Shown here one piece after another: positions 4,150-64,000 of a stretch of 64,000 nt of DNA (within the stretch, counting starts at the first letter, position 1; the number at the start of each line of letters is the position of its first letter). This stretch comes from Escherichia coli (GTDB lineage: Bacteria > Pseudomonadota > Gammaproteobacteria > Enterobacterales > Enterobacteriaceae). Both the position numbers and the translations under genes were made by a program. The notes beneath the pieces are model-generated. The model did not search any database and was not told where the DNA came from. It worked only from the letters and a program-made list of their open reading frames with translations. The stretch is taken from NCBI RefSeq assembly GCF_965641715.1, contig NZ_OZ282453.1; one strand, written 5' to 3'.

Positions 4150-4181
4150 GTAGATGCCTGAATCTCTATTCAGGCATCTAC
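4150..4181 (+). terminator. perfect 14-bp stem hairpin (gtagatgcctgaat-ctct-attcaggcatctac), attenuator or operator candidate
   Basis: Inverted repeat read directly in the sequence between the DUF4387 gene and the transporter gene; downstream tract is only moderately T-rich. Confidence 0.45.
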
Positions 4182-4205
4182 TTCTCCTGATTCTGATTTA
4201 TCGCC

Positions 4206-9100: not shown

Positions 9101-9383
9101 TATAGCATATCCCTCTAAGAATTTTTGCGATGCTGCAATATCCGGGGTAAAGACCCGATCCTGGCTGACAAATGGCACGACTTGACGAAAAGCGGTGAAC
9201 ATCGCTTTTGTTGATTTACTTAACGCTACGGTCAAACGCTGGGAAGCCAGTGCATCAGGTAACGATTCGAAATTCGCCGTCGTTCTTATTCGTGGCTTGC
9301 GGTCGGTTGCGGCAATCCACAGTGGCTGTGGTCATGCAGTCAAGCCTGCAGTCAGATTTCGACCGTGGTTAACCGTTTAAGGC

Positions 9384-11559: not shown

Positions 11560-11860
11560 CGTAGACCGAATATTTCGTATCGCTCCCGGGTATTGTCGGT
11601 CACCCGTAGGCCTGATAAGACGTGTAAGCGTCGCATCTGGCATCGCTTGTCGGATGCGGCGCGAGCGCCTTATCCGACCTACATCGGTGCTTCCCGTAGG
11701 CCTGATAAGACGTGTAAGCGTCGCATCAGACATCGCTTGTCGGATGCGGCGCGAGCGCCTTATCCGACCTACATTGGTGGTCCCGTAGGCCTGATAAGAC
11801 GCGTCAGCGTCGCATCAGGCTTCAATTGCCGGAGAAGGCGATAATGCCTTATCCGGTCTA
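11560..11860. repeat. BIME/REP array, three ~95-bp units
   Basis: Three near-identical units containing gcctgataagacg…gcgtcgcatc…cggatgcggcg…ccttatccgacctac palindromes in the sucB-sucC intergenic region. Confidence 0.85.
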
Positions 11861-16094: not shown

Positions 16095-16217
16095 ACGCCT
16101 GATGCGCTGCGCTTATCAGGCCTACGGGTAATGACTTGTAGGCCGGATAAGGCGTTCACGCCGCATCCGGCACTGGTTGCCTGATGCGACGCTTGCGCGT
16201 CTTATCAGGCCTACGGT
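16095..16217. repeat. REP elements in the sdhB-sucA intergenic region
   Basis: gcctgatgcg…cttatcaggcctac and gccggataaggcg…gcatccggc palindromes. Confidence 0.8.
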
Positions 16218-44005: not shown

Positions 44006-44288
44006 GGGTTGAAATGCCGGATGCGGCGTAAACGCCTTATCCAGCCTACTCATCGTCCCGTAGGCATGATAAGACGCGTCAGCGTCGCATCAGGCATGGC
44101 TCTGTGAATAACGTCGGCAAAAACTGGAAAAAGACCCCGCCCTCGCCATTTCATTACCGAAACCGGTATTGGGTATCGGTTTATGCTTTAGGGGCTGACT
44201 TGCCGGATGCGGCGTGAACGCCTTATCCAGCCTACTCATCGTCCCGTAGGCATGATAAGACGCGTCAGCGTCGCATCAGGCATTGGCA
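43927..44288. repeat. tandem direct duplication (~190-bp period, 2 copies) of the kdpE 3' end plus a REP pair
   Basis: Copy 1 at 43927-44098 and copy 2 at 44117-44288 are near-identical; each carries the last ~80 nt of kdpE followed by gccggatgcggcg…ccttatccagcctac and gcctgatgcgacgctgacgcgtcttatcatgcctac palindromes. Confidence 0.85.
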
Positions 44289-44304
44289 CTCATGGCTAAA
44301 TATT

Positions 44305-44799
44305 TTAATGTGTATTTATCGCTTTCAACTCTTGCTGGCATTTTTCTGACTGGCAGCGTCGCAACTCAATAATCCCGACATGCATCATCGAGCCAATAAA
44401 GCCGCTTTCGCTGACATAATCCTCATTAACTATCGGTCGAGTGCCGGGCTTGCCCTGGCAAACCAGCATAAAAAATGAGGTGTAGCACTGCCAGCCGGGA
44501 TTTAAACCGGCTTTTTCTTGTGCTGACATATCGTGAAGATAAATAAGTTCTTTTTCGTTCCCGCCTGACAACTGCCAGCGGCGGGTATTATCAGGTAAGT
44601 TATCGCTACAACAATTTGTCTTACACCGGGAAGGCGCAATATTTACCGCAATGCTACCCTTTAACCCTCTGGTTTTATCTTTAGGGGTCAGTAACCAGTC
44701 GCCAGCTAATGATGATTGTTCAGGTTGGGCACATGCAGTCAGCAGTAGTGTGGCGGCAATGAATGTTACTCTTACGACCAGACTCCTTTTGGTCTTCAT
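44305..44799 (-). CDS. ybfP: lipoprotein YbfP
   Basis: 164 aa with a lipoprotein signal (…LLLTAC…). Confidence 0.85.
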   Translation of the reverse strand: MKTKRSLVVRVTFIAATLLLTACAQPEQSSLAGDWLLTPKDKTRGLKGSIAVNIAPSRCKTNCCSDNLPDNTRRWQLSGGNEKELIYLHDMSAQEKAGLNPGWQCYTSFFMLVCQGKPGTRPIVNEDYVSESGFIGSMMHVGIIELRRCQSEKCQQELKAINTH

Positions 44800-44849
44800 T
44801 TTGAATTCCCTTGAGCTATTCAGTTTGTTGGCAAAGTGCGCGTTGTTTT

Positions 44850-44885
<36 letters not shown>

Positions 44886-44931
44886 AAATGATGCAAATTC
44901 AATATATTGCACCATCAGGCAGTCATACGTA

Positions 44932-44966
44932 AAAAAGGGCGATCTTGCGACCGCCCTTTTTTTATT
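44932..44966. terminator. intrinsic terminator 3' of pgm, bidirectional-looking
   Basis: aaaaaagggcgatcttgcgaccgccctttttttatt: GC stem flanked by an A-run and a T-run. Confidence 0.75.
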
Positions 44967-44974
44967 AAATGTGT

Positions 44975-50431: not shown

Positions 50432-51838
50432 TCAGAAGATGGTGAATGGTGCGATTACCATAAATTTCACGTCGCGCTCATCCTGGAAGATGTTACCGTA
50501 ACCGCCACCCCAGCTTGGGATGTCGGAGTGGTTGTCGTATTCGGTGAAGTGCAGTTTGAACATCGTGCCTTTGGCGCGACCGTCCTGAATGGTGTAGACC
50601 GCATCCAGGCTGTATGCAGACTCTTCAATAGTCCGGTTTTTGTCGTAGTACGCATCCGGATTGCTCTGCCAAGTCGCAGGTTTAGCATCCCATGCGTAAA
50701 CGTAGGAAGCGCCGATGGCGAAGCCTGGAAGATTCCAGTTTTTCAGGTCATACATCGCACCGAAGAAGACCGCTTTTTCGCCGTTGGCGTTGAAGTCAGA
50801 ACGGTTATCCCACCAGATATCCAGGCGGCCGTTGGAAGAAGCGTAGGTTGGAGTCATACGTTGCAGGAAGTATCCCTGCTGACCTTCAGCCTTAACCCAG
50901 GTGCCTTCGAGGCGCAAATCCACTACGTCAGCCGCCCGGTAACCAAAGGTCAACGCTTGCAGCCAGGCGGTGCCGTCATAAAGATCGTTGACGCTGCGAT
51001 CGTCAACTTTATCGCGCGTACCGTAGAACTGGTAGCTGGTGGTTAACGGGCTACCGGCGATATCAAATTTGTAGCTGGCTTTGGCAAAGTATTGATCGAT
51101 ATACCCTTCCGCCTGACCAAATGCCGCTTCCAGTACGAAGTTATTTTTGAAGTCGTATTTCGCACCAAGGGAGTGCAGATAATCAACTTTGGTGGTTTTA
51201 TCGTTCTGATAAAACTCATCCATTTCCAGATGCCACGGTGCTTTGTATTCGTTGGTCCACATGTAGGAGAAACTCAACGCACCAGCATCGCCGTAATCAA
51301 AATTCGCTCCGGCTTCCGCACCCTGATAAGTACCCGGCATAAAGCTCCAGTGAGGCGCTAACAGCGTCTGACCGGTTGGCTGAATATAACCTGCCCTCGC
51401 CCAAACCGGACCGTATTTAAATTTGGCCGCAGCTTTATACAGGCTTATACCGCTTTTGTCGCCGGACCAGTCTTCGTCATAGGCTTTATTACTTTTTGAA
51501 AACGCGATTTCGTTCGGGTGAGAGCTGTCGCCGTTTTCCGCCATTTCAATCGCCGTAAACGCAGCAATATCAAGGCCGAACATATCAGCAGCATAACCGG
51601 ACTGAAAATCGAGGTTGGCATTCCAGGTGGAGTGAGAAAGGTTGGTTTTGTATTTGTCGCCGTCGGTAACATCTTTACGGTCGCGTTCACGCTGCCAGTA
51701 ATATATACCGCCGGTTAAGGTTGAATCGTCGATGAATCCTTCGGCGCGAGCCTCCGGCATTGCCATAAAGCCCGACATTGCTGTAACACCGGCGATAGCC
51801 AGCGCCAGCGTACTACGTTTGCCACTAAACGTACGCAT
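50432..51838 (-). CDS. chiP: chitoporin (OprD-family outer-membrane porin)
   Basis: 468 aa with signal peptide, ending in a C-terminal aromatic residue (…APFTIF). Confidence 0.9.
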
Positions 51839-52417: not shown

Positions 52418-54082
52418 TTACTCGCCAACTTTCGCCCAGGTATCACGCAGCCCAACGGTGCGGTTAAATACCGGTTTTTCGGCAGTGGAATGGCGGCTAT
52501 CGAGGCAGAAGTAACCTTCACGCTCAAACTGGAATGCTTTACCCGCAACCGCATCTTTCAGCGACGGTTCAGCAAAGCCCTGTTTGATCACCAGCGATTC
52601 CGGGTTAATCACCGACAGGAAATCATCCGCAGCACCAGGGTTCGGCACACTGAACAGACGGTCATACAAACGGATTTCAACCGGCAGCGCATGTGCCGCG
52701 CTCACCCAGTGAATAACACCTTTGACTTTACGACCATCTGCCGGATCTTTACTTAAGGTATCGGCGTCATAAGTACAGAAGATGGTGGTGATATTACCTT
52801 CGGCATCTTTCTCGACGCGTTCTGCCTTAATCACATAAGCATTACGCAGACGCACTTCTTTACCGAGCACCAGACGTTTGTACTGCTTGTTAGCTTCTTC
52901 GCGGAAATCGGCGCGATCGATCCAAATCTCACCGCTAAACGGCACCTGACGGCTCCCCATTTCCGGTTTGTTCGGATGGTTCGGCATGGTGACCATTTCG
53001 CCTTCGCCCTGATAGTTTTCGATAACCAGTTTCACCGGATCGATAACCGCCATTGCGCGCGGCGCATTTTCGTTGAGATCTTCACGGATGCAGGATTCCA
53101 GCGACGCCATCTCAATGGTGTTGTCCTGCTTGGTCACGCCGATGCGTTTGCAGAACTCACGAATAGAAGCCGCAGTGTAACCACGACGACGCAGACCGGA
53201 AATGGTCGGCATTCGCGGGTCATCCCAGCCTTCAACGTGCTTGTCGGTCACCAGCAGGTTCAGCTTACGCTTGGACATCACAGTGTATTCCAGATTCAGG
53301 CGCGAGAATTCGTACTGGCGCGGGTGAACAGGAATGGTGATGTTGTCCAGCACCCAGTCGTACAGGCGACGGTTGTCCTGGAACTCAAGCGTACACAGAG
53401 AGTGCGTAATACCTTCCAGCGCATCGCTGATGCAATGGGTGAAGTCGTACATCGGGTAGATGCACCACTTGTTGCCAGTCTGGTGGTGTTCAGCAAATTT
53501 AATGCGGTACAGCACCGGATCGCGCATTACGATAAATGGCGACGCCATGTCGATTTTCGCACGCAGGCAGGCTTTACCTTCTTCAAAACCGCCGGTACGC
53601 ATTTTCTCGAACAGCGCCAGGTTCTCTTCAACGCTACGGTCGCGGTACGGGCTGTTTTTACCAGGCTGCGTCAGGGTGCCGCGGTATTCGCGGATCTGTT
53701 CCGGCGTCAGTTCATCAACGTACGCCAGGCCTTTATTGATCAGTTCGATCGCATAGGCGTGGAGCTGATCAAAATAATCGGAGGAGTAACGGACGTTACC
53801 AGACCAGTGAAAACCTAACCACTCAACGTCGTTTTTGATCGAATCGACATACTCGATATCTTCTTTTACCGGGTTAGTGTCGTCGAAACGCAGGTTGCAC
53901 TGGCCTTTATAGTCCTGGGCGATCCCGAAGTTCAGGCAGATAGATTTCGCATGGCCAATATGCAGATAGCCATTCGGCTCCGGCGGGAAACGGGTGTGTA
54001 CTGTGGTGTGCTTACCACTGGCCAGATCTTCATCGATGATCTGACGAATAAAGTTAGTCGGGCGGGCTTCTGCCTCACTCAT
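52418..54082 (-). CDS. glnS: glutaminyl-tRNA synthetase
   Basis: 554 aa, [24 protein letters not shown]…; class I HIGH motif (HIGH). Confidence 0.97.
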
Positions 54083-54301
54083 CGTGGATTCCTCAAAGCG
54101 TAAACAACGTATAACGGCGTATGATCTTATAAGCGGGACAGGCTGACAACTGTTAGTTAGCGAAAAAGTGGTTTTGCGTAAGATATTGGGGCGTTTTCTG
54201 CGCTACAGCCAGCAGATCCTCGCGCTGGAGACGTAAGGCCAAACGTCGCCAGCCTGACGCGTTTATTAAATTTCCGGATGAGCTGGCCGCAGAGTCGTAG
54301 A

Positions 54302-55063
54302 TTAATCCGCTATGATTAAACGCGTCGACAAGGACGCCAGCGTTTTGCGCGTCTGCCCATCAAGCTGATTATCCGTAATAATCTCTGTCAGTTCATTAAG
54401 ATGCGCGATATTAAACAGCGACCATGAACCGTATTTTGAGCTGTCAGCCAGGAGAATTTTGCGCGAAGCATGCGCGATAAGATCGCGTTTTAGTGCGGCT
54501 TTCTCTTCCGTGGGTGCTGTAATACCCTTTTCAAGATCCCAGCTGTTACAGCTTAAAAATGCCACGTCCGGCCAGGTATTTTGCAGCATTTTACGACCAT
54601 GTTCGCCAATGCAGGACTGGCTGGAGTCGTCGATACGTCCGCCGATAATCGTCACTTCAATCTGCTTGAATTCAGCCAAAAAAAGCGCGATATGCAGGTC
54701 GCTGGTGATCACGCGAAGCGGTAAATGGGTAATCTGCCGCGCAAGTTCAATCATTGTCGTACCGGCATCAAGGACGACGGAATCCCCCGCTTTGACCATT
54801 GACGCCGCTGCGCTGGCGATGGCATGTTTTTCCGCCAGGCTGCGCTGCATTTTCTCATGGGTAGTCGGTTGGGTAGGAATAAACCGGTTGAGGGTCACAC
54901 CGCCGTGTGTACGGCTGATAACACCCTGCTCATCGAGTTTTATCAGGTCTCGACGAATCGTGGCCGGCGACGCATTGGTTACCGCCACCAGCTCATCAAC
55001 GGTGACCAGATTATGGCTTTTCAGGTAATCCATGATCTGCTCTAACCGGTTATATCCCTTCAT
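54302..55063 (-). CDS. DeoR/GlpR-family transcriptional regulator
   Basis: 253 aa; N-terminal HTH …[21 protein letters not shown]… typical of DeoR; last gene of the minus-strand kinase-dehydrogenase-regulator operon. Confidence 0.85.
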
Positions 55064-55064
55064 T

Positions 55065-56051
55065 TTATTCTCGCGAAATCTGCATTGCTAACTGGATGGA
55101 AACTGCCATGCTCTCAGACTTGGCTTTTCCTGTCCAGGCAATATCAAATGCGGTGCCGTGGTCGGCAGAAGTACGAATAAATGGCAACCCGGCGGTGATA
55201 TTCACCCCATCATAAAATCCAAGCAGTTTTAAAGGGATATGCCCCTGATCGTGGTACATAGCCACCACCATATCGAATAGCCCTTCATGGCACTGCATGA
55301 ACACGGTATCTGGCGGGCACGGGCCAGTAACATCAATATCTTCGGCCTGCATTGCTTCAATCGCAGGTGCGATAATCTCGATTTCCTCAGTGCCGAATAA
55401 ACCGTGTTCCCCTGCATGTGGATTTACACCCGCCACGGCAATACGCGGACGCTCAATACCGACACGTTTCAGGAAGTGGTTCGCAACTCGAATAACCGTT
55501 TTGACCCTTTCACCGTTCAATGTATCCAGGAATTTACGCAGTGAGATGTGAGTCGAAATATGGATAACCTTGAGCTTATCGGTATAGAGCACCATCGCGT
55601 ACTCTTTGCTGCCGGTAAGATGGGCCAGCAATTCCGTATGGCCAGGATAGTTATGCCCGCCAAGATGCAGCGCTTCTTTATTCAACGGCGCAGTGGCTAT
55701 GGCTTTCACCTCGCCTGATAAGGCCAGGGCCGTTGCACGTTTGATACAGCGATACGCTAAATCGCCTGCCGCAGCCTGTACCACTCCGGGTGTCAGCGCA
55801 TCGGGGTTAGCCAGCGGCTCATCCATCACGTTAATCACGCCGGGAGCAAAGTGGGCGTCGCACACCTTTTGAATGACGCGTAACTCTGTCTGCGGCGTGA
55901 TATTCATCGCCATAATACGTCGTAACGTGCGCACACAGCCCACCACCACCACCGGGGCACCAGCAAGCCCGGCTTCGCTCAGGGATTTAATAATGATCTC
56001 CGGGCCAATACCCGCCGGATCGCCCATCGTTACCGCAATAATATTATTCAC
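55065..56051 (-). CDS. PdxA-family NAD-dependent dehydrogenase (PdxA2-like)
   Basis: 328 aa with a PdxA-type N-terminus (…[14 protein letters not shown]…); adjacent to a DUF1537 kinase. Confidence 0.8.
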
Positions 56052-57282
56052 TACGCTTCTCCTCGATAAAATTCAGAACCTGATGCAACGTGGTCTCATC
56101 GCCAAACCCACCGGCTTTCGTCATCACCGAACGGGACCAGACGCCGCCCAGAAAGTGACCGTATGGAACGCACTGCGCCACCTTCCCCGTAATACGAAAC
56201 CCGGTCGCACCTAACGCACTGGCTGTTGCCATTGCGACATCGCCACCAGAGAGATAAAGGGCATCAGGGGTGACACGAAGCAGAACTTGCCGGGTAAGTT
56301 CGCCAAGAAACCGGCAAATTTTTTCCCCAAGCGCAGCGCGACTCATCTGCCAACGCTGGCAAAGGGTGTCGATATGGTGCCTTGCTTCAGAATCGGTACA
56401 GGTGTGGACAATGCAGTGGTCCCCTTTCTGTAAGGCCTGCACAATACGCGCGTCATAGCCCCTGGCGTTGCCTGCCAGAATGTGTTCAACATCGACGTAT
56501 ATCTGTGTGATACGTGAGTGTGAATGCAGTGTGGCGATCTGCCGTTGAGCGATTTCGCTCATTGAACCAATAATGGCCAGCACGGTGGGTGGCGGCATAA
56601 TCGCCGAGCGCCGGGCAACGGCATCACAAATACCAGCGGAGCCGACCAGCAGCAGCGGTTGTTTAGCCTGCATCACAGCGGCAGCGATGCAATCCAGGTC
56701 GCTGTCCGTCTGCGCATCCATCACCCCAATCCACGGTTGCTCACGAGACAAATGGCTGAGCTCAGAAACTGTAACGGGCTGGCATGGAATGGCCGTCTGC
56801 AACCGAATGATGTCCGCAATTCGTGCGCTCATTACCGGGGTTTTTGGATCGCTGGCAAACTCGGTTTCCGTTAGCCGCACGCCGTTTACCCGACACTCAC
56901 CGTCCACCGTGGTCCTTCCCACCTGGGGAAATGCGGGGGCAACCACTGCGCCCGTTATGCCGCATGCCTGCATCAGGGCTTCAATTTCTGCGCCGATATT
57001 CCCTCGCAGCGTGGAATCTATCTTTTTAATCATGAGCGGCGGGTTATTCGCCAGAGGGAGATGACTCATCAGCGAGGTCATTTTCATCGCGGCCTGCTTA
57101 GGATCCATCGCCCGACTGTCGCTATTAATCACCCATACGCTTGCATCACCGTGATAAGGCGTTGCAAAGGCCACATCAACCGTATGTCCCACCTGCGCCA
57201 GGCTTACTCCTGCGTCGTTGGCCCCTGTGAAATCATCGGCAACGACGAGAATGCTCGGCTTAGTGATTCCCTTTTCCATCAT
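56044..57282 (-). CDS. four-carbon acid-sugar kinase family protein (DUF1537; DtnK/OtnK/DenK-like)
   Basis: N-terminal …ILVVADDFTGANDAG… motif; start ambiguous (57282, 57279 or 57321); overlaps the PdxA-family gene by 8 nt. Confidence 0.75.
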   Translation of the reverse strand: MMEKGITKPSILVVADDFTGANDAGVSLAQVGHTVDVAFATPYHGDASVWVINSDSRAMDPKQAAMKMTSLMSHLPLANNPPLMIKKIDSTLRGNIGAEIEALMQACGITGAVVAPAFPQVGRTTVDGECRVNGVRLTETEFASDPKTPVMSARIADIIRLQTAIPCQPVTVSELSHLSREQPWIGVMDAQTDSDLDCIAAAVMQAKQPLLLVGSAGICDAVARRSAIMPPPTVLAIIGSMSEIAQRQIATLHSHSRITQIYVDVEHILAGNARGYDARIVQALQKGDHCIVHTCTDSEARHHIDTLCQRWQMSRAALGEKICRFLGELTRQVLLRVTPDALYLSGGDVAMATASALGATGFRITGKVAQCVPYGHFLGGVWSRSVMTKAGGFGDETTLHQVLNFIEEKRSE

Positions 57283-57299
57283 CACTCCAGGTTGTTTTA

Positions 57300-57448
57300 T
57301 GATGACAATGATTATATTCAATCACGATTGATTAAATGTGAGCAAGTTCAAGTTATTAATCACTCGAATAAATTATAAAATTAGGCCATGTTACGTAGAC
57401 AACGGTATTTTGAATGATTGATTTCAATCACGAGAAGAGAGGTTATTT
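57300..57448. promoter_or_regulatory. divergent promoter/operator region with repeated TTCAATCACGA motifs
   Basis: Motif at 57318-57328 and 57423-57433, each next to a gattgatt half-site; lies between the divergent kinase and alcohol-dehydrogenase operons. Confidence 0.45.
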
Positions 57449-58606
57449 GTGGTAATTATCAATAGCACGATACTGAGCGGCGCAGGCGCTATCCCTTCCC
57501 TGACGTCGCTCTTACCCGGCGTCAGAAAATTGCTGCTGGTCACAGACAGCAATATTGCGCAGCTTAACGGAGTGCAGCAGATTCGCGCCTTACTGGAAAA
57601 GCACTGCCCGCAGGTGAGCGTTATCGATAATGTGCCTGCAGAGCCTACGCATCATGATGTGCGCCAGCAAATGGCGACCCTCGGCAACGCGTCGTTTGAT
57701 GTAGTAGTGGGCGTCGGCGGCGGCAGCGTGCTGGATGTCGCAAAACTGTTGTCGGTGCTTTGTCACCCCGATTCACCGGGGCTGGATGCGCTGCTTGCCG
57801 GTGAAAAACCGACGCAGCGGGTGCAATCATGGTTGATTCCTACAACCGCCGGTACCGGCTCAGAAGCCACGCCAAATGCGATTCTGGCGATCCCTGAACA
57901 AAGCACGAAGGTGGGTATTATTTCTCCGGTGCTGCTACCGGATTATGTGGCACTTTTCCCCGAGCTGACCACCAGCATGCCCGCACATATTGCAGCGTCT
58001 ACGGGCATTGATGCGCTTTGTCACTTACTGGAGTGTTTTACCGCGACCGTGGCAAATCCGGTCAGCGATAACGCGGCGCTAACCGGGTTAAGTAAGCTTT
58101 TCCGGCATATTCAACCCGCCGTGAACGATCCTCAGGATCTGCGCGCAAAACTGGAAATGCTGTGGGCGTCTTACTATGGCGGCGTAGCGATAACCCATGC
58201 GGGCACGCACCTGGTCCATGCGCTCTCCTACCCGTTAGGCGGCAAATATCACCTGCCGCACGGTGTGGCGAATGCCATCTTGCTGGCACCGTGCATGGCG
58301 GTTGTTCGCCCCTGGGCGGTCGAGAAATTTGCCCAGGTCTGGGATTGCATTCCCGATGCGGATACATCCTTGAGCGCGGAAGAGAAATCTCACGCTCTGG
58401 TGGCCTGGCTACAGGCATTAGTCAATCAACTCAAGCTGCCCAACAATCTCGCGGATCTTGGCGTACCGCCAGATGATATTACGTCTCTTAGCGCGGCGGC
58501 ACTGAACGTGAAGCGCCTGATGAACAATTCCCCCTGCCAACTGAATCAGCGGGACGTGCAGGCCATTTACCAAACGCTGTTTCCGCAACATCAATTTAAG
58601 GAGTAA
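57449..58606 (+). CDS. iron-containing (group III) alcohol dehydrogenase family oxidoreductase
   Basis: 385 aa with GTG start and upstream RBS gagaagagagg; GGGSVLD nucleotide-binding motif. Confidence 0.8.
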   Translation: MVIINSTILSGAGAIPSLTSLLPGVRKLLLVTDSNIAQLNGVQQIRALLEKHCPQVSVIDNVPAEPTHHDVRQQMATLGNASFDVVVGVGGGSVLDVAKLLSVLCHPDSPGLDALLAGEKPTQRVQSWLIPTTAGTGSEATPNAILAIPEQSTKVGIISPVLLPDYVALFPELTTSMPAHIAASTGIDALCHLLECFTATVANPVSDNAALTGLSKLFRHIQPAVNDPQDLRAKLEMLWASYYGGVAITHAGTHLVHALSYPLGGKYHLPHGVANAILLAPCMAVVRPWAVEKFAQVWDCIPDADTSLSAEEKSHALVAWLQALVNQLKLPNNLADLGVPPDDITSLSAAALNVKRLMNNSPCQLNQRDVQAIYQTLFPQHQFKE

Positions 58607-58609
58607 ATC

Positions 58610-59497
58610 ATGCCAAAAACCATTGAAGGTGTATTAACCGCCATCGTCACCCCGTTTACCGCGACCGGCGTCCTGAATCTCCCGGCGTTAAAAGTGCAGG
58701 TTAATCGCCAACTGGAAGCCGGTAACGCGATTTTTTGCGGCGGCACCAACGGCGAGTTTTTTGTGTTGAACGAACAGGAGAAGCTCAGCGTTACGCAAAC
58801 CTGCGTGGATGAAGTGGCTGGCCGCGCACCGGTCGTGGCGCACATTGGTGAGATCTCGACGCGCGAAACCATTCGTCTGGGTCAGCAGATTGAAAAACTG
58901 GGCGTTGATGCGGTATCGGTCATTACCCCGTACTTTGTACCGCTAAAACAGGAAGAGCTGATTGCCCATTACACCGCAATTGCCGACGCACTAAGCATTC
59001 CCATGTTTCTCTATAACATCCCGGCCCGCACCGGCAATACGATTCAGCCGGAAACCGCGCGCGCTCTGGCGTCGCATCCCAATATCATTGGGATTAAAGA
59101 CAGCGCCGGAAGCTACGAAAGCCTGAAGGGTTTTCTCGATGCTGTGCGCAACATTGACGGCTTTAATGTGCTCAACGGCCCGGATTCGCTGATCCATAAA
59201 GGGTTTGTCGAGGGGTGTTCAGCCTGTATTTCCGGGCTCGCCAACGTCGCGCCGCGAGAAATCAATGCCATCTGGTCTCGCTTCCATGCCGGTGATATTG
59301 AAGGATCGTATCAGGCACAGGAGAGTGTGACTGGCCTGCGTACCGATCTTTATAAAGTAGCATTCTCCCCAGCTGCGGTGAAAAAAGCGTTGCAGCTTAT
59401 GGGGCATGATGTTGGTGATAGCCGCTACGCGGTTAATTTCACGCCTGAACAGATCAGCGAGATTCAACAAATTATTCGTCATTATCACATTAATTAA
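58610..59497 (+). CDS. DapA/NanA-family class I aldolase (dihydrodipicolinate synthase-like lyase)
   Basis: 295 aa with GTNGE motif, a Tyr in ITPYF and a Schiff-base Lys candidate in IIGIKDS (Lys163); 3 nt after the dehydrogenase gene. Confidence 0.8.
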   Translation: MPKTIEGVLTAIVTPFTATGVLNLPALKVQVNRQLEAGNAIFCGGTNGEFFVLNEQEKLSVTQTCVDEVAGRAPVVAHIGEISTRETIRLGQQIEKLGVDAVSVITPYFVPLKQEELIAHYTAIADALSIPMFLYNIPARTGNTIQPETARALASHPNIIGIKDSAGSYESLKGFLDAVRNIDGFNVLNGPDSLIHKGFVEGCSACISGLANVAPREINAIWSRFHAGDIEGSYQAQESVTGLRTDLYKVAFSPAAVKKALQLMGHDVGDSRYAVNFTPEQISEIQQIIRHYHIN

Positions 59498-59556
59498 ATT
59501 AACTCTATTATCCAGCCCGCTATAACGTATAGATAAAGAGAATAAAGGATTACCCC

Positions 59557-60315
59557 ATGTTTTTGTGGTTTATGCAGCCAGATATCTGGCTCACTTTAAT
59601 TACCCTCACCTTTCTGGAAATTATTCTCGGGGTGGATAATATTATTTTTCTTTCACTGGTGGTGGCAAAACTTCCGTTATCACAACAAAATATGGCGCGT
59701 AAACTGGGTTTAAGCTGCGCGATGATTATGCGGATATTATTGCTGATATCCATTGCGTGGCTTTCACATATTACCCAGCCGCTTTTTACCGTGCTGGCGC
59801 TGGAGATTTCGTTCCGCACGTTGATTCTACTCGGGGGCGGGCTGTTCCTGATTTATAAAGCGATACAGGAGATACGCGAAGAGTTGTCGCCCGCGCAGGA
59901 AGACGCGCATGGCAGCGGGTCGCGGCAGCTGTCGCTGTGCGGTGCTATCGTACAGATAATGCTGCTGGATATTGTGTTCAGCCTGGACTCGGTGATCACC
60001 GCCGTCGGCCTTTCTCAGCATATATTTATTATGATTGCTGCCGTCATGATTGCCGTTGGCATCATGATGTTTGCGGCGAAAACCATTGGTGACTTCGTGA
60101 ACGCGACGCCATCGATAAAAATACTGGCGTTAACCTTTTTATTATTTGTCGGCGTATTGTTGGTTGCCGATAGCCTCAATATTCATATTGCCAAAGAGTA
60201 TCTCTACTTCGCGATATTTTTCTCATTAAGCGTGGAGACACTCAATATTTTCCGTGAAAGAAGACATAAAAAAGTTTCGACATCGATCGAAACGCATGAA
60301 TCGAACTCGCATTAA
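59557..60315 (+). CDS. TerC-family integral membrane protein
   Basis: 252 aa polytopic protein with a TerC-like …LEIILGVDNIIFLSLV… motif. Confidence 0.7.
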   Translation: MFLWFMQPDIWLTLITLTFLEIILGVDNIIFLSLVVAKLPLSQQNMARKLGLSCAMIMRILLLISIAWLSHITQPLFTVLALEISFRTLILLGGGLFLIYKAIQEIREELSPAQEDAHGSGSRQLSLCGAIVQIMLLDIVFSLDSVITAVGLSQHIFIMIAAVMIAVGIMMFAAKTIGDFVNATPSIKILALTFLLFVGVLLVADSLNIHIAKEYLYFAIFFSLSVETLNIFRERRHKKVSTSIETHESNSH

Positions 60316-60350
60316 TAAATCTATTACCGACTTTAAGATGGAGTCTAACT

Positions 60351-61520
60351 ATGTCTGTAGCTCTTATTCGTGACGGCGTCATCCGTCCGTCCGAAAATGA
60401 TTCGCATGTGCTTACCGCCATGCTGCCCTCGTCCTGCCCGCAAAACCACGCGGCGAATATTCTGCCTTTGCCGGATGGCGCGTTAATGTGCGTCTGGTTT
60501 GCGGGAACGCAGGAAGGTATTGCCGATATTTCCGTCTGGGGATCGCGGCTGCCCGCTGGCGGAACGCAGTGGAGCGATGCGGTCAAACTGTCCCACGATG
60601 ACACGCGTTCAGAGCAGAACCCGGTACTGTTTCTCGCACCGGATAACGTGCTGTGGCTGCTATGGACCGCACAAATATCCGGTAATCAGGACACCGCCAT
60701 CGTCCGCTACCGTAAGTCAGACGACCTCGGACAAACCTGGGGCGAGATTGCCACGCTGCTCGATAAACCCGGCACGTTCATTCGCCAGCCGATCACGGTG
60801 CTTGATAACGGCAACTGGCTGCTGCCCGTCTTTTATTGCCGTACCCAACCCGGTGAAAAATGGGTCGGCAATGATGATATCAGCGCAGTGAAAATTTCCG
60901 CTGACGGTGGTCACTCATGGCGCGATGTCGAGGTGCCGCAAAGTCTCGGCTGCGTTCATATGAATATCACAATGCTGCACGACGGTACGTTGGCTGCTCT
61001 CTTTCGCAGCCGTTGGGCAGACAACATCTATATCAGCCATTCTGCGGACCACGGCGAGAGCTGGTCGGTGCCGCAAGCAACCGAACTGCCCAACAACAAT
61101 TCGTCTATTCAGGTGACGACGCTTGCCAGCGGTGAGCTGGCGCTGGTGTACAACGCAATGAGTGCGGCAGGCGCAGTAGAACGTCGCGCGTCGCTGTATG
61201 ACGAAATCGACGATGGCGACGACAGTCGCAAAGAACCCACAGCCGTTGGACGCTCCGCTTTCTGGGGTGCCCCGCGCGCGCCGATGACGGTAGCGATTTC
61301 TGCCGATGGCGGGAAAAGCTGGCCGTGGCGGCGCAATCTCGATGAAGGCGATGGCTACTGCATGACCAACAATTCGCTGGAAAAGCTAAATCGCGAGTTC
61401 TCCTACCTCAGTATCAAACAAAGCCCGGACGGTACGCTGCATATCGCTTACACCTGGTGGCGTCAGGCCATCAAGTACGTGCGCATCTCCCCCGAGTGGG
61501 TTAAGGGGCAGGCATTATGA
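60351..61520 (+). CDS. BNR/Asp-box repeat protein, sialidase-superfamily beta-propeller, predicted cytoplasmic
   Basis: Four Asp-boxes: SDDLGQTW (60717-60740), SADGGHSW (60897-60920), SADHGESW (61041-61064), SADGGKSW (61299-61322); N-terminal IRP resembles the sialidase RIP motif; no signal peptide apparent. Confidence 0.75.
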   Translation: MSVALIRDGVIRPSENDSHVLTAMLPSSCPQNHAANILPLPDGALMCVWFAGTQEGIADISVWGSRLPAGGTQWSDAVKLSHDDTRSEQNPVLFLAPDNVLWLLWTAQISGNQDTAIVRYRKSDDLGQTWGEIATLLDKPGTFIRQPITVLDNGNWLLPVFYCRTQPGEKWVGNDDISAVKISADGGHSWRDVEVPQSLGCVHMNITMLHDGTLAALFRSRWADNIYISHSADHGESWSVPQATELPNNNSSIQVTTLASGELALVYNAMSAAGAVERRASLYDEIDDGDDSRKEPTAVGRSAFWGAPRAPMTVAISADGGKSWPWRRNLDEGDGYCMTNNSLEKLNREFSYLSIKQSPDGTLHIAYTWWRQAIKYVRISPEWVKGQAL

Positions 61521-61987
61521 TTATCGGGAATCTCAACCATTTGTCACAGGCGGGGCTTCCCGCTGGCGTGAAAAATATTCTGCTGCGCCCGGAATGTTCG
61601 TTACGGGCGTTATCCGCCAGAGAGGACGGTCGCTGGCAACTGGAAGGATGCCGGTGGTTCTGCACGCTGGGCCTTTCAGACACGCAGCCCGCCGATCTCC
61701 GGCATACGGAGTATCACCATCTGTGGGCCGATATTCAGGTGGTGATTGCCGGTTGTGAGGGCATTAATGCGGGGACGCGGCCCGTAGCGCAGGAAAGCGA
61801 TGAAGAACGTAAGCCCGATCTGTTTATCGCCCCATCCCCTGAAAACAGTGTCGCAATCACCTTACACCCCGGTGATTTCGCCGTCTTTATGCCAGAAGAA
61901 CCCCATCAGGCGCTGTGCGCGGTTGGCGCGGCCACGTCAGTACGTAAAGCGGTCTTTAAGGTACCGCGCGACATGCTGGAAGCCTAA
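61517..61987 (+). CDS. YhcH/YjgK/YiaL-family (DUF386) protein, putative ulosonic-acid anomerase
   Basis: 156 aa resembling E. coli YhcH (…GDFAVFMPEEPH… versus YhcH …GMFAVFMPGEPH…); overlaps the upstream gene by 4 nt. Confidence 0.75.
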   Translation: MIIGNLNHLSQAGLPAGVKNILLRPECSLRALSAREDGRWQLEGCRWFCTLGLSDTQPADLRHTEYHHLWADIQVVIAGCEGINAGTRPVAQESDEERKPDLFIAPSPENSVAITLHPGDFAVFMPEEPHQALCAVGAATSVRKAVFKVPRDMLEA

Positions 61988-62000
61988 AAGGAGAGAAAAA

Positions 62001-63281
62001 ATGACAATGGAAATGATCCTGGCATTAGGAATACTGGTCCTGATGATCGTGCTGATCATGTCGGACAAAATGCCCTTTGGCGCACCGCCACTGCTTGCGT
62101 GTTTATTGCTGGTTGTCTCGGGGCTGTCGACGGTTCAACAGGCTTTTGCCGGATTCGTCAATCCAAGCGTGGTGATGATTGCAGGGTTTATGGTGGTGAT
62201 GGCTGCGCTACAAAAAACCCGGCTTATCAGCAACGTTAAATCTGCGATGATAAGCCTGGTCAATAAAGGCAGTTACCGCAGTTATGGGCTGTTGTTAGTC
62301 ATCGTTATGCTGGGCGCCAGTCTTGCCGGCACCGGCGCGACGGGTTATTACGTGCTGATTCTGTCTCTGGTATCCACCATTCCGTACAGTAAAAAGCTAC
62401 CAACATCGAAATTGATGATGCCACTGGGATTTGCCACCAACCATCCGCTTCTTCCTATCAATCTCGCGCTTCTCTTTGGCGTCACGGCGACCGTACTCGA
62501 AACAGCCGGTTTTCATCAGGAGATTTCGATGGGGCGCTTTGCGCTGGTGAATCTCGTCATGTCAGCGGCTTTTCTGGCGTGGAGTCTGATTGCCTACCGT
62601 TTTCTTCCGGATCATCCCATTGCGGATGCTTCCGAGGATGCGCTGGCCGCACGCGAAGAAACGTTTAACGCCCTTCCTGCCTGGAAAGAGTATTGCACCA
62701 TCGCCGCATTCGCCGTCAGCGTTATCGGCATGATGCTGATGAATATGCTGGGTAATATCGCCTTCGTTATTCCAGGCCTTGCGGGTGCGTTTGTTCTGAT
62801 GATCGATGTACTGGACTTTAAAGAAGTTCGCGATCATATGGGGGCACCGGTCATTTTAATGATGGCGGGGGTGATCGGTGTGGCTGATGCGCTGGCTGGC
62901 ACCGGCTTTACGGCAATGGTAGGCGATGCCGTTGCAGGTGTGCTCGGGTCTGGCGTCTCACCGTTTGTATTTATTGTCGCCTTTGCTTTACTTACCAGTA
63001 CCTGCGCCACCTTCACGGGTTCGAATATGGGGTCAGTCTATATTTTTGCCCCCATCGCCATTGCCGCCTGTACTAGCCTTGGGCTTAACCCGACCGCTGC
63101 CGCGATTGCGGTGGTGATTTCTGGCTGGAATGGCGGCTATATGCCTATTGACGGAATGCCAGCCATGATCCTCGGAATGGGGAAATACAAACTTCCCGAA
63201 TTCTGGGTGTTCTCTGTACCAATGTATCTCATCCGCATTCTGGCGCTTTGTGCAGGCGCTGTTTTTATCTTCCCAATGTAA
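62001..63281 (+). CDS. ion-transporter superfamily permease (DASS/CitMHS/ArsB-like), putative organic anion transporter
   Basis: 426 aa polytopic membrane protein; start taken at the ATG 7 nt after the aaggaga RBS (MTMEMILALGIL…), not the ORF-track start at 61800 which overlaps the upstream gene. Confidence 0.7.
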   Translation: MTMEMILALGILVLMIVLIMSDKMPFGAPPLLACLLLVVSGLSTVQQAFAGFVNPSVVMIAGFMVVMAALQKTRLISNVKSAMISLVNKGSYRSYGLLLVIVMLGASLAGTGATGYYVLILSLVSTIPYSKKLPTSKLMMPLGFATNHPLLPINLALLFGVTATVLETAGFHQEISMGRFALVNLVMSAAFLAWSLIAYRFLPDHPIADASEDALAAREETFNALPAWKEYCTIAAFAVSVIGMMLMNMLGNIAFVIPGLAGAFVLMIDVLDFKEVRDHMGAPVILMMAGVIGVADALAGTGFTAMVGDAVAGVLGSGVSPFVFIVAFALLTSTCATFTGSNMGSVYIFAPIAIAACTSLGLNPTAAAIAVVISGWNGGYMPIDGMPAMILGMGKYKLPEFWVFSVPMYLIRILALCAGAVFIFPM

Positions 63282-63290
63282 TCTCAGACA

Positions 63291-63327
63291 AAAAAAGCGG
63301 CAGAGAAGATCCCTGCCGCTTTTTATT
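63291..63327. terminator. bidirectional intrinsic terminator between the convergent permease gene and nagE
   Basis: aaaaaaa-gcggcag-agaagatcc-ctgccgc-ttttt. Confidence 0.75.
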
Positions 63328-63366
63328 GTTGAATGCGACGCTGCCGTGTCGCATCAGGCATGAAGC
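63328..63366. repeat. REP-like palindrome at the nagE 3' flank
   Basis: gaatgcgacgctgccgtgtcgcatcaggc resembles a REP core. Confidence 0.5.
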
Positions 63367-63369
63367 AGA

Positions 63370-64000
63370 TTACTTTTTGATTTCATACAGCGGTGTTTGA
63401 CCCGCCACAACATGGCCCTGAGCTTTAATGATCAAGCCACTGAAATCGTCGATATTACTGCAAACCACTGGGCTAATCATCGAGCGGGCGTTAGCGTTCA
63501 GGTAATCCAGATCCATTTCCAGAATCGGTTGTCCTGCGCTTACCTGCGCGCCCTCTTCCACCAGACGTTTAAAGCCTTTACCTTCCAGCGCTACGGTATC
63601 GATACCCATATGGACGACGATCTCCGCGCCTTTTTCGGTTTCCAGGCAGAACGCGTGGTTGGTGTTGAAGATTTTCACGATTGTCCCTGCGGCTGGTGAT
63701 ACGACGATTTTATCTGTCGGTTTCACCGCCACACCGTCACCCACTGCTTTGCTGGCGAATGCTTCGTCAGGAACCTGATCCAGTGCCACGACATCACCGG
63801 TAATCGGCGATACCAGCTCCGCGATAGATACCGCGTTTGGTACAGCCTGCGGTTTTGCTACAGGAGCGGCAGTTGCCGGAGTTGCTTCAGCAGAGGCAGC
63901 TGCTACCGGGCCACGGGCAACGACTTTCTTCATCGCATCGCCGATGGATTCTGCTTTCGCGCCAACAATCACCTGAATAGTCTGTTTGTTCAGTTTTACT
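63370..64000 (-). CDS. nagE: PTS N-acetylglucosamine-specific EIICBA component, C-terminal part (5' end lies beyond the window)
   Basis: Translation ends …GQTPLYEIKK; EIIA-Glc-type domain with the GIDTVALEGKGF region; the frame stays open towards the window edge. Confidence 0.85.
   Translation of the reverse strand, partial: VKLNKQTIQVIVGAKAESIGDAMKKVVARGPVAAASAEATPATAAPVAKPQAVPNAVSIAELVSPITGDVVALDQVPDEAFASKAVGDGVAVKPTDKIVVSPAAGTIVKIFNTNHAFCLETEKGAEIVVHMGIDTVALEGKGFKRLVEEGAQVSAGQPILEMDLDYLNANARSMISPVVCSNIDDFSGLIIKAQGHVVAGQTPLYEIKK

Follow-up and report, generated by a model that had tools for sequence, protein, structure and literature searches.

The closest described counterpart of the locus examined here is the region named GR 6 (nagE..glnS) of the APEC strain BEN2908, a 9.8-kb stretch between nagE and glnS that is reported as common to B2 ExPEC strains (APEC O1, IMT5155, RS218, IHE3034, 78-Pyelo, and CFT073) and to the AIEC strain LF82, with genes for a CitT-like permease, an EbgC/NanQ-like protein, a COG4692 sialidase-like protein, a DapA-like protein, an Fe-ADH, a DUF1537 kinase, PdxA2, and a regulator (PMC12928451). 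The part of that paper that deals with GR 6 proposes horizontal gene transfer and does not analyze the junctions, the ptrR remnant described below, or the ancestral state (PMC12928451). As reported there, GR 6 has the same locus, the same gene order, and about the same size as the block in the window (the whole 64-kb stretch of E. coli DNA that was analyzed), and its B2 copy corresponds to our locus L001; the window's copy differs from it in being a distinct mosaic allele, whose nearest complete backbone relative, strain A30, lacks the block. The block is therefore already published as a B2-associated metabolic region, and the junction itself is ordinary. What the present analysis adds is the anatomy of the locus, the polarity of the event, its donor context and single origin, and the absence of mobility features.

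Like the tRNA-linked, integrase-borne islands of E. coli, the block is polymorphic for presence or absence, multigenic, and enriched in B2; unlike them, it has no integrase, tRNA target, direct repeats, or compositional deviation. The same gene order, at 72 to 98% amino acid identity, is found at the sad-ptrR locus of Klebsiella, Enterobacter, Kluyvera, Leclercia, Pseudocitrobacter, and others, i.e., sad-ptrR-(deoR pdxA2 dtnK / Fe-ADH DHDPS ... BNR yhcH), where ptrR converges on deoR exactly as the window's remnant does. There, however, ptrR is intact and the cluster lies far from glnS and nagE, whereas in the window ptrR is a wreck; at the native ptrR locus of E. coli (glsB-sad-ptrR-yneK-ydeA), the cluster is absent. 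The pair DtnK/PdxA2, with DtnK one of the DUF1537 kinases, is said to have been described as a D-threonate catabolic pair by Zhang et al. in PNAS in 2016; both window proteins exceed the NCBIfam equivalog cutoffs and are fixed here in a larger cluster with an aldolase-type enzyme, an Fe-ADH, a BNR protein, a YhcH protein, and a transporter. Finally, the block-free nagE-glnS region, which occurs in a 202-bp form (L002) and in 258- to 267-bp forms with a two-REP BIME (L003 and A30), is homologous base for base to the hairpin, A-tract, and REP palindrome at 63290 to 63369 of the window.

The explanation of the whole that we consider likely is that the spacer at the right edge of the block is the nagE transcription unit's own 3′ end, made up of a Rho-independent terminator and a REP-derived palindrome, and that the block arrived by a single illegitimate insertion followed by allelic exchange through homologous recombination. 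The features are as follows.

52418..54082, minus strand: glnS, glutamine--tRNA ligase, left core flank (554-aa ORF)
54083..54192, minus strand: native glnS upstream region, shared in part with empty alleles
54193..54228, plus strand: foreign ptrR (yneJ) LysR pseudogene, N-terminal piece (ptrR nucleotides 188 to 223; 11 residues)
54226..54300, plus strand: ptrR pseudogene, C-terminal piece (ptrR nucleotides 796 to 851 onward; TAG stop at 54298 to 54300)
54302..55063, minus strand: DeoR/GlpR-family regulator (Pfam HTH_DeoR and DeoRC; RefSeq homologue)
55065..56051, minus strand: pdxA2, D-threonate 4-phosphate dehydrogenase (NF002891, 680.9 bits against a cutoff of 583)
56044..57279, minus strand: dtnK, D-threonate kinase, DUF1537 (NF047819, 531.8 bits against a cutoff of 450)
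57415..57430, no strand: perfect palindrome TGATTGAttTCAATCA, candidate operator in the divergent promoter region
57449..58606, plus strand: iron-containing alcohol dehydrogenase (Pfam Fe-ADH and ADH_Fe_C)
58610..59497, plus strand: DHDPS/NanA-family protein, class I aldolase type (Pfam DHDPS; under every NCBIfam equivalog cutoff)
59557..60315, plus strand: TerC-family membrane protein (Pfam TerC)
60351..61520, plus strand: BNR/sialidase-family protein (Pfam BNR_2, 212 bits)
61517..61987, plus strand: YhcH/YjgK/YiaL (DUF386) protein (Pfam DUF386; TIGR00022)
62001..63281, plus strand: SLC13/DASS-family anion permease, last gene of the block (Pfam CitMHS and Na_sulph_symp)
63282..63289, plus strand: TCTCAGAC, final 8 nt of the import, following the permease stop
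63290 to 63331, no strand: nagE intrinsic terminator (fold; A7, hairpin, and T5ATTGTTG)
63333 to 63360, minus strand: REP-derived chimeric palindrome downstream of nagE (head motif and fold)
63370..64000, minus strand: 3′ end of nagE, right core flank (ORF and homology)

The product of glnS is identical to E. coli GlnS (SYQ_ECO27 cluster), and its RefSeq homologues are annotated glnS. NF002891 and NF047819 are NCBIfam equivalogs; the start of dtnK was taken from a 411-aa RefSeq homologue and that of the permease gene from a 426-aa one, the longer permease ORF from 61800 being an artifactual extension. The palindrome TGATTGAttTCAATCA (repeat family D19) occurs once in the window against 0.01 copies expected, is positionally conserved across 21 island loci from several genera, and has a degenerate copy at 57307 to 57327. 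A sequence search of the PDB with the BNR protein returned no relative.

Positions 63282 to 63369 are exactly the 88 bp that separate the stop codon of the SLC13 permease gene (plus strand, 63281) from that of nagE (minus strand, 63370). After the first 8 nt comes an A7 tract (63290 to 63296), read as U7 on the nagE strand, then the stem-loop GCGGCAG/AGAAGATCC/CTGCCGC (63297 to 63319) and T5ATTGTTG (63320 to 63331), of which T5ATT (63320 to 63327) gives seven U residues in the first eight on the plus strand. The 51-nt terminator stretch folds at −22.2 kcal/mol on the plus strand and −26.7 kcal/mol on the minus strand, with z-scores of −6.1 and −6.7, respectively, and none of 200 shuffles was equally stable; the core hairpin, with a G+C-rich stem of 7 to 10 bp, reaches −12.9 (plus) and −16.8 (minus) kcal/mol. 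It is placed between the convergent slc13 (plus) and nagE (minus) genes, near both stop codons, and so combines the marks of a bidirectional intrinsic terminator, namely, a stable G+C-rich stem, a U-tract on each strand, and a position between convergent genes. A simple terminator scan missed this hairpin because its loop is 9 nt long and the maximum of the tool is 8, and an Rfam scan of 53800 to 64000 at an E value of ≤1 gave only two subthreshold chance matches, neither at the junction. The permease gene runs into the nagE terminator from the opposite side, so the hairpin would serve both convergent transcripts, with termination probably occurring in both directions.

A homologous A-tract and GCGGC hairpin adjoin nagE in the empty alleles of E. 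coli and in four outgroups, and the U7-9 tail on the nagE strand is constant across E. coli empty alleles, E. albertii, Salmonella, K. aerogenes, and Kluyvera. We also considered that the hairpin had been imported with the block. This was rejected on account of that homology and because the donor-like Pseudocitrobacter locus (L007) has another hairpin after slc13.

The REP-derived palindrome sits between the nagE stop codon and the nagE terminator. Its head, CCTGATGCGACAC at 63346 to 63358 (minus strand), matches the REP head motif (GCCTGATGCGAC...) in an extragenic imperfect palindrome, the motif having eight matches in the window against 0.18 expected, and the stretch 63333 to 63360 folds at −17.7 kcal/mol. 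At up to three mismatches it does not match the complete 36-nt REP consensus (head, loop, and GCGTCTTATCAGGCCTAC tail), whereas six canonical REPs elsewhere in the window do. Its 3′ half consists of another, inverted REP head, such that the head of REP-a is fused to the head of REP-b of a two-REP BIME whose intact form is present in the longer empty alleles of E. coli (258 to 267 bp) and in E. albertii. The comparison identifies the palindrome not as a canonical REP but as a head-to-head chimera, the product of a 65-bp deletion within the two-REP BIME. The earlier note had called the spacer a bidirectional terminator plus a REP; the strong two-strand hairpin (z of about −6) stands, and the REP has to be downgraded to a degenerate one.

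The terminator differs between occupied and empty loci. All 14 occupied E. coli loci carry CCCTGCCGC followed by TTTTTATT (−12.9 kcal/mol on the plus strand, seven U residues in the first eight), while all six empty E. coli loci carry CTCCACCGC followed by TTGTCATT or TTTTGCCA (−9.1 kcal/mol, four or five U residues). The haplotype strings are as follows.

Occupied: CCCTGCCGC-TTTTTATTG
Empty: CTCCACCGC-TTGTCATTG

The empty form has A9 where the occupied form has A7; its G.U pairs on the nagE strand are C.A mismatches on the other strand, and it lacks a good plus-strand T-tract. Within E. coli, the two-way form is perfectly linked to the occupied haplotype, which carries the substitutions that would make it a good terminator on the plus strand too; the occupied allele of Escherichia sp. 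MOD1-EC7003 (L006) has a weaker plus-strand terminator (−8.0 kcal/mol). One could go further and propose, jointly, that selection after the insertion made the nagE terminator two-way, three stem substitutions restoring Watson-Crick pairing on the plus strand and two creating T5, and that the islet is an old cross-species Escherichia polymorphism carrying an uncharacterized acid-sugar pathway. In such a pathway, the SLC13 permease would take up an anionic sugar, the BNR and YhcH proteins would process it, and the DHDPS-type aldolase would yield pyruvate and a C4 aldehyde, from which the Fe-ADH would form D-threonate for conversion to DHAP by DtnK and PdxA2, the substrate being a plant- or host-derived 2-keto-3-deoxy acid sugar. 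Taken as a whole, this extension is speculative and we regard it as rather unlikely; the better bidirectional hairpin in E. coli may reflect drift or hitchhiking and not adaptation. Our literature search found no characterization of the function of the cluster or of 3-deoxy-lyxo-heptulosaric acid catabolism.

At the left boundary, positions 54083 to 54160 are identical between occupied and empty E. coli alleles and include a putative glnS promoter found by pattern match (−35, TTGTCA, 54149 to 54144; −10, GATCAT, 54126 to 54121). Beyond the promoter, 54161 to 54192 match Salmonella at 26 of 32 positions and the empty alleles of E. coli or E. albertii at 18 of 32. Island origin of this segment, suggested by its difference from the E. 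coli empty alleles, was rejected, as Salmonella shows that it is an older version of the glnS upstream region. The next 36 nt (54193 to 54228) are identical (36/36) to the ptrR orthologue of Pseudocitrobacter vendiensis (L007, 2515 to 2550; E value of 6e-14) and match E. coli's own ptrR at only 24 of 30 positions. The second piece, 54226 to 54300, matches L007 ptrR at 41 of 56 nt (alignment score of 42, against a shuffle maximum of 25), and its frame reads RRQPDAFIKFPDELAAES up to the stop codon, the counterpart in L022 being SRQLEAFIALLDEPESD. The two pieces are joined over a 572-bp internal deletion at a TGG overlap, and the 5′ end is truncated: the remnant begins near codon 63, precisely at the junction, so that the edge of the insert cuts the donor gene. 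The earlier assignment of about 220 bp (54083 to 54301) to glnS upstream DNA thus holds for 54083 to 54192 only, 54193 to 54300 being foreign ptrR remnant.

The left break falls at 54192|54193 in the glnS upstream region, right after ...ATATTGGGGC. On the right, TCTCAGAC has its counterpart in the CCTCCGGC that follows the slc13 stop of Pseudocitrobacter (L007), and no empty allele contains it; the junction lies inside 63290 to 63299 (AAAAAAAGCG), a stretch that also occurs in the donor-like sequence (CAAATAAAGCG). The inserted block spans 54193 to 63289, about 9.1 kb. The junction strings are as follows.

Left: ATATTGGGGCGTTTTCTGCGC
Right: CCAATGTAATCTCAGACAAAAAAAGCGGCAG
Empty site: GGGGATGATTGATGAAAAAAAAAGCGG

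GGGC on the left and AAAnAAAGCG on the right are common to the target and L007, Pseudocitrobacter being the closest comparator (85 to 91% nucleotide identity) and a stand-in for the donor; the joining may thus have been mediated by microhomology. In the scenario that we favor, a 9.1-kb chromosomal piece of another enterobacterium, running from mid-ptrR through a DeoR-regulated D-threonate module (dtnK and pdxA2) into a six-gene operon (Fe-ADH, DHDPS-type aldolase, TerC, BNR protein, YhcH, and SLC13 permease), would have entered the ancestral nagE-glnS spacer by illegitimate recombination, at the cost of about 10 nt of the former spacer, as a single ancient event in an Escherichia lineage that involved no recombinase.

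We weighed against this the possibility that the block derives from a mobile element (integrase-borne island, composite transposon, or ICE fragment) that has decayed and lost its machinery and repeats. Integrases and att sites can indeed be lost from old elements, and the Pantoea cluster on a megaplasmid (L032) indicates that the cluster travels between replicons. However, ARAGORN found no tRNA in the whole 64-kb window (tRNA/tmRNA scan), the nearest tRNA cluster lying 6.7 kb past nagE, beyond nagBACD-asnB; the direct and inverted repeat search over the block gave no boundary repeats, the reported families being weak, chance-level matches; and Pfam detected no recombinase or transposase domain in the nine block products. 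Nor were pseudogene fragments of mobility genes or the marks of an IS or composite transposon (transposase, terminal inverted repeats, or target site duplication) found, and the junctions show a target loss of about 10 nt without target site duplication. The only gene remnant at an edge belongs to ptrR, a regulator of the housekeeping type that was broken within its coding sequence, as is typical of a randomly broken chromosomal fragment. In the complete island-bearing genome SCU-485, no integrase is annotated within 18 kb on either side, only core genes, and the plasmid and phage collections held no copy at ≥85% identity, the matches reaching only about 74% and lying in megabase-size, nonmobilizable Klebsiella and Pantoea records. 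Mobile-element decay is therefore improbable. The statement that the junction has no integrase, tRNA, or direct repeats was borne out by the tRNA scan, the repeat search, and Pfam, also for an integrase sought outside the window, in that one complete genome. The composition check proposed in the earlier note was less decisive. Block and core have GC contents of 0.528 and 0.527, GC3 values of 0.588 and 0.566, and codon usage distances of 0.124 and 0.125, with no difference (Mann-Whitney P values of 0.54 to 0.99), but equal composition is as compatible with a donor of similar composition as with an old import.

A still less probable alternative is that the block is ancestral at the site and was lost from most E. 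coli lineages by lineage-specific deletion, perhaps promoted by REPs. In its favor, a second Escherichia species has a block about as diverged as its flanking nagE (91%), compatible with long residence, and REP/BIME-associated deletions do occur in the nagE-glnS spacer. Against it, nagE adjoins glnS with the same spacer architecture and no block in all four outgroups (Salmonella, E. albertii, Klebsiella aerogenes, and Kluyvera), and the roughly 10 nt of spacer (ATGATTGATG) present in E. coli empty alleles and outgroups is absent from occupied alleles, so that the empty form is not derivable from the occupied one by deletion. These two observations show that the empty site is ancestral and the block an insertion. 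About 70 Enterobacterales species have the cluster as a conserved unit, with nagE as its neighbor in Escherichia-type loci alone; elsewhere, in about 20 further enterobacterial genera, it adjoins ptrR, never glnS or nagE, with the ptrR orthologue immediately left of deoR in >20 Enterobacteriaceae loci, and the Escherichia copy bears a fragment of that gene. The breakpoint is also away from the REP, at the foot of the terminator A-tract (63290 to 63299) on the far side of the hairpin, contrary to the suggestion that the REP had acted as an indel hotspot for this junction; the 65-bp BIME polymorphism among empty alleles does represent REP-associated indels and is distinct from the block junction. 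Comparing the junctions of carriers and noncarriers, as the earlier note had proposed, hence upheld one of the two origins it left open, i.e., old acquisition and no recent mobile-element insertion, given the lack of mobility genes, att repeats, and tRNA, the core-like composition and codon usage, and the junctions common to distinct Escherichia lineages. It went against the other, deletion, the ptrR fragment having come with the cluster. In single lineages, recombination with an empty allele may still have removed the block, which would be allele replacement and no deletion event.

An insertion with later allelic exchange is also consistent with the distribution of the block. It is present in 1,047 of 5,426 complete E. 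coli genomes, always between glnS and nagE, the others being empty, and the window's copy is 94.9 to 95.3% identical to all 1,047 copies in complete RefSeq genomes. The window shares its junctions and its internal ptrR deletion with B2 E. coli (L001 and others) and with Escherichia sp. MOD1-EC7003 (L006), the sole non-coli Escherichia species with the block sampled, whose copy has 91% nucleotide identity (about 9% divergence); this identity across alleles shows a single origin. Independent entries at an insertion hotspot into B2, the window's lineage, and the cryptic Escherichia species are barely credible: the alleles differ by 5 to 9%, and locally by up to 30% in L006 slc13, which at first sight suggests separate sources, but the identical left junction, 572-bp ptrR deletion, and 8-nt TCTCAGAC right end of all alleles would not be reproduced independently, and the divergence is better explained by age and homologous recombination within the block.

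The window's backbone is 98 to 100% identical to that of the block-free strain A30, and its block, compared with the B2 allele, is mosaic, with 98% identity over 54400 to 57400 and 89 to 96% over 57400 to 63100. The divergent tract ends within nagE near 63520 to 63650 (sliding identity to A30 and SNP table), and 63433 to 63520 in nagE hold a cluster of SNPs private to the window's lineage. One empty locus (L090) and one occupied locus (L091) have the same REP variant. Since the insertion, the occupied and empty forms would have been allelic variants of a single chromosomal locus. Homologous recombination in glnS and nagE would have carried them from lineage to lineage and reshuffled their interior, which is how the block probably spread. 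The occupied allele looks older (Salmonella-like) on the glnS side, at 54161 to 54192, and E. coli-like at the nagE-side hairpin; flanks of such mixed affinity, themselves recombined, point to no one lineage as the recipient of the insertion.

Overall, the analysis settles more than it opens, the junction being E. coli's own nagE terminator with a REP remnant. Its modest added value lies in the ptrR wreck, which sets the polarity of the event (insertion) and the donor context (the sad-ptrR locus of another enterobacterium) and in the demonstration of a single origin. The locus provides a worked example of an operon without mobility genes that would have entered once by illegitimate recombination and spread as an allele by homologous recombination. 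The haplotype-linked terminator difference amounts to a small natural experiment on one-way versus two-way terminators, and pathway discovery in ExPEC-type E. coli could reasonably start from the conserved nine-gene cluster.

The 88 bp at 63282-63369 extend exactly from the stop codon of the SLC13 permease gene (plus strand, the last of the block) to that of nagE (minus strand), in the following setting:

50432-51838, minus strand, chiP
52418-54082, minus strand, glnS
54302-63281, nine-gene block
63370 onward, minus strand, 3' end of nagE

The spacer consists, in order, of TCTCAGAC, A7, GCGGCAG-AGAAGATCC-CTGCCGC, T5ATTGTTG, AATGCGACGCTGCCGTGTCGCATCAGGCA and TGAAGCAGA. At the sequence level, the bidirectional terminator proposed here in the earlier note is confirmed: the A7-hairpin-T5 unit folds strongly on both strands (-22.2 kcal/mol on the plus and -26.7 on the minus strand; z-scores of -6.1 and -6.7), 0/200 shuffles were equally stable, and a consensus terminator scan passed over the hairpin solely owing to its 9-nt loop. 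The REP label holds only in part. A second palindrome (63333-63360) does, when read on the nagE strand, contain the REP head CCTGATGCGACAC, but fails the full REP consensus that six other elements of the window pass. In allele comparisons, E. albertii and a subset of E. coli have a two-REP BIME here, and the palindrome is non-canonical because, in the short form, a 65-bp deletion relative to the longer alleles has fused the heads of the two REPs. The REPs at 11606-11820 (three canonical copies at ~90-bp spacing), 16179-16214 (a single canonical copy) and 44060-44281 served as a positive control, against which the nagE-side palindrome is atypical.

In all four outgroups compared (Salmonella, E. 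albertii, K. aerogenes and Kluyvera), nagE directly adjoins glnS, and their common architecture is ATATGGGGG, ~10 nt, A7-9 and a GCGGC... hairpin. The empty alleles of E. coli, i.e., those without the block, have this same architecture including the 10 nt ATGATTGATG, while the occupied alleles lack ATGATTGATG. The empty state is thus ancestral and is not obtainable from the occupied state by deletion, contrary to the lineage-specific deletion entertained previously as an alternative to acquisition. The hairpin itself is nagE's own terminator. Past the slc13 stop, CCTCCGGCAAATAAAGCG leads into a different hairpin in the Pseudocitrobacter locus, and TCTCAGACAAAAAAAGCG leads into the nagE hairpin in the window; the switch from donor-like to resident DNA therefore falls inside AAAAAAAGCG (63290-63299), which is common to both partners, as is GGGC at the left junction. 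The comparison suggests that joining would have occurred at microhomology (AAAAAAAGCG on the right, GGGC on the left), a step we infer with Pseudocitrobacter standing in for the donor. The REP is not the breakpoint: the right junction lies ~35-45 nt from the palindrome, across the hairpin, and the rationale that REP-adjacent sites are indel hotspots is not supported here. Another presence/absence difference is found at kdpE-pgm (44006-44974), where the B2 strain SCU-485 has speFL-speF-potE, and where a 165-aa ORF and two canonical REPs (44060-44095 and 44246-44281) are all that the window and its best backbone match, strain A30, contain; unlike the glnS-nagE junction, this site is truly beside REPs.

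On the left, the 78 bp upstream of glnS (54083-54160), which include a promoter-like TTGTCA-17-GATCAT by pattern match, are identical between occupied and empty alleles. The adjacent 32 nt (54161-54192) match the empty alleles of E. coli/E. albertii at 18/32 positions and the Salmonella glnS upstream region at 26/32, and are therefore native glnS upstream DNA in an older version. In place of these 32 nt, the E. coli and E. albertii empty alleles (L002, L003 and L004) have a segment of different sequence ahead of the glnS -35 element, which in E. coli contains the palindrome AATCTCACTGAGATT; the Salmonella-like 32 nt persist in the occupied allele, a sharp haplotype contrast beside the identical 78 bp. 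From 54193 onward, the DNA is foreign. Positions 54193-54228, which translate to 11 residues, match at 36/36 positions (E 6e-14) a Pseudocitrobacter vendiensis gene of the LysR family (nt 188-223), and 54226-54300 aligns to the last ~56 nt plus the stop codon of the same gene (score 42 versus a shuffle maximum of 25), the frame ending in RRQPDAFIKFPDELAAES and the stop. Its E. coli orthologue is ptrR (yneJ), which encodes the regulator adjoining sad; the junction truncates the remnant in the window at the 5' end, and an internal deletion, at a TGG overlap, has removed a further 572 bp. Thus, the ~220 bp of glnS upstream DNA formerly taken as the left boundary contain a foreign ptrR remnant from 54193 to 54300.

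When one genome per species was searched with the BNR protein, the complete cluster turned up, with its gene order unchanged, in ~70 Enterobacterales species (including Klebsiella, Enterobacter, Leclercia, Kluyvera, Kosakonia, Pantoea, Erwinia, Pectobacterium, Dickeya and Gilliamella), and beside nagE in only three loci: an E. coli B2 strain, a Citrobacter-labelled MAG contig and Escherichia sp. MOD1-EC7003. The MAG contig (L005; DXKH01000039.1, 'Citrobacter sp.' MAG HRGM_Genome_0066) is 10 kb long and 99-100% identical to the B2 island allele including the nagE end, and has the appearance of E. coli sequence misassigned to a Citrobacter bin. An intact ptrR stands immediately left of deoR in >20 Enterobacteriaceae loci; in one of them (L022), ptrR and deoR converge directly, as the remnant and deoR do in the window, with sad lying beyond ptrR. 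Because ptrR adjoins the cluster in other genera and E. coli's own sad-ptrR-yneK locus is without such a cluster, the Escherichia block is a foreign chromosome fragment running from mid-ptrR to just past slc13. The cluster exists in two transporter versions (L007-L010, L022, L023 and L076 versus L011-L021 and others): in the Escherichia/Klebsiella/Kluyvera/Pseudocitrobacter type, terC separates the aldolase-type gene from the BNR gene and slc13 comes last, and most other genera lack slc13 and have ~1.5 kb of other DNA where terC would be. The Pantoea ananatis cluster is carried by the megaplasmid pPANA1 (L032).

The absence of an integrase, tRNA or direct repeats reported in the earlier note was borne out by domain, tRNA and repeat searches. 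There was no tRNA or tmRNA in the 64-kb window, no repeat pair framing the block, and no recombinase or transposase domain in any of the nine block products (DeoR regulator, PdxA2, DUF1537 kinase, Fe-ADH, DHDPS-family enzyme, TerC, BNR protein, YhcH and SLC13 permease). In the complete, block-carrying genome of SCU-485, the 18 kb on either side of the block are all core genes, the nearest tRNAs being the metT-leuW-glnUW-metU-glnVX cluster 6.7 kb past nagE; plasmid and phage records held no copy of the block at >=85% identity. The proposed compositional check, run against 40 core ORFs of the window, found no difference in GC (0.528 for the block versus 0.527), GC3 or codon usage.

The terminator exists in two haplotypes. 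GCGGCAGAGAAGATCCCTGCCGC then TTTTTATTG is present in all 14 occupied loci of E. coli, and GCGGCAGAGAAGATCTCCACCGC then TTGTCATTG or TTTTGCC in all six empty ones. Two stem positions that are G.U on the nagE strand of the empty form, and hence C.A mismatches on the plus strand, are Watson-Crick on both strands of the occupied form; the plus-strand hairpin goes from -9.1 to -12.9 kcal/mol and its U count from 4-5/8 to 7/8. The nagE-strand hairpin is strong, with a U7-9 tail, in every taxon compared. These changes are as expected if the hairpin were tuned to also stop the incoming permease transcript. Against this, the other Escherichia species has a weaker plus-strand hairpin (-8.0 kcal/mol), and we regard such adaptation as no more than possible. 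At the opposite end, the terminator scan found no minus-strand hairpin with a U-tract in 54083-54301, between the co-directional deoR and glnS. The nagE terminator stood before the glnS promoter in the ancestral spacer; dtnK-pdxA2-deoR transcription could therefore read into glnS in block-carrying strains.

The gene content of 54302-63281 (anion transporter, BNR, YhcH, class I aldolase-type enzyme, Fe-ADH, DtnK and PdxA2) suggests a single pathway. BNR and YhcH families are known from sialic-acid processing. Speculatively, the substrate might be a 2-keto-3-deoxy acid sugar cleaved to pyruvate and a C4 unit ending as D-threonate, which DtnK and PdxA2 might in turn convert to DHAP; our literature search found no characterisation of the cluster's pathway. 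A perfect palindrome, TGATTGAttTCAATCA, at 57415-57430 in the dtnK/Fe-ADH divergent promoter region, 19 nt upstream of the Fe-ADH start, has a degenerate copy 106 bp away (57307-57327). Its conservation at this position extends to 21 island loci, among them those of Pseudocitrobacter, Kosakonia, Phytobacter and Mangrovibacter, and the DeoR-family regulator probably uses it as an operator. The permease (426 aa) starts at 62001, in line with its RefSeq homologues, and a 493-aa mechanical ORF (61800-63281) was rejected as an artefactual 5' extension overlapping yhcH.

Three features, namely the left junction, the internal ptrR deletion and the right end of 8 nt (TCTCAGAC), do not vary between the window, a further twelve occupied E. 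coli loci (the island of SCU-485 being counted twice, as L001 and L101) plus L005, and MOD1-EC7003, whose block is 91% identical, similar to its nagE. The block thus goes back to a single insertion. These shared junctions in different Escherichia species, and the lack of mobility signatures, support the view of an old acquisition rather than a recent mobile element. The block is present in 1047/5426 complete E. coli genomes, including ST131 and B2 ExPEC, invariably at the glnS-nagE site. The window copy is just 94.9-95.3% identical to all 1047; its flank reaches 98.9% identity with E. coli genomes, most closely matching A30, which is without the block. Draft E. coli assemblies, e.g., GCA_910705265.1, also carry the window allele (~100% identical). 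Relative to the B2 allele the copy is mosaic, with 98% identity over deoR-dtnK and 89-96% over 57400-63100, and a private SNP cluster runs into nagE to ~63520, beyond which the window is again 99-100% A30-like. The diverged stretch, 57400-63520, spans the right two-thirds of the block and the first ~150 bp of nagE (4-11% from B2); ~57400-58000 is closer to MOD1-EC7003 (96-98%) than to B2 E. coli (89-91%), and at several private SNPs in 63433-63500 E. albertii and the other Escherichia species carry the common state. In MOD1-EC7003 (L006, ~8040-9320, equivalent to window 62200-63080), slc13 is only ~70% identical in nucleotides and 74% in amino acids, the remaining block being 90-98% identical, which suggests replacement by a different allele inside an orthologous block. 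Two B2-type copies look damaged, one by a ~240-bp deletion shortening slc13 to 343 aa (L097, ~1058-2089) and one with no terC gene called (L095, ~3740-4586), and may mark the start of block decay in some strains.

Overall, the finding is an ordinary one: the spacer is the resident nagE terminator, and the block is already in the literature, appearing in B2 ExPEC as "GR 6 nagE..glnS", an uncharacterised sugar-metabolism region (PMC12928451). The single useful addition is the ptrR remnant, from which origin and polarity follow. The identity pattern, the mosaicism and a REP variant shared by one empty and one occupied allele fit allelic exchange: the occupied and empty forms would be alternative alleles at an ordinary locus, and homologous recombination, which needs no mobility genes, would exchange and shuffle them.
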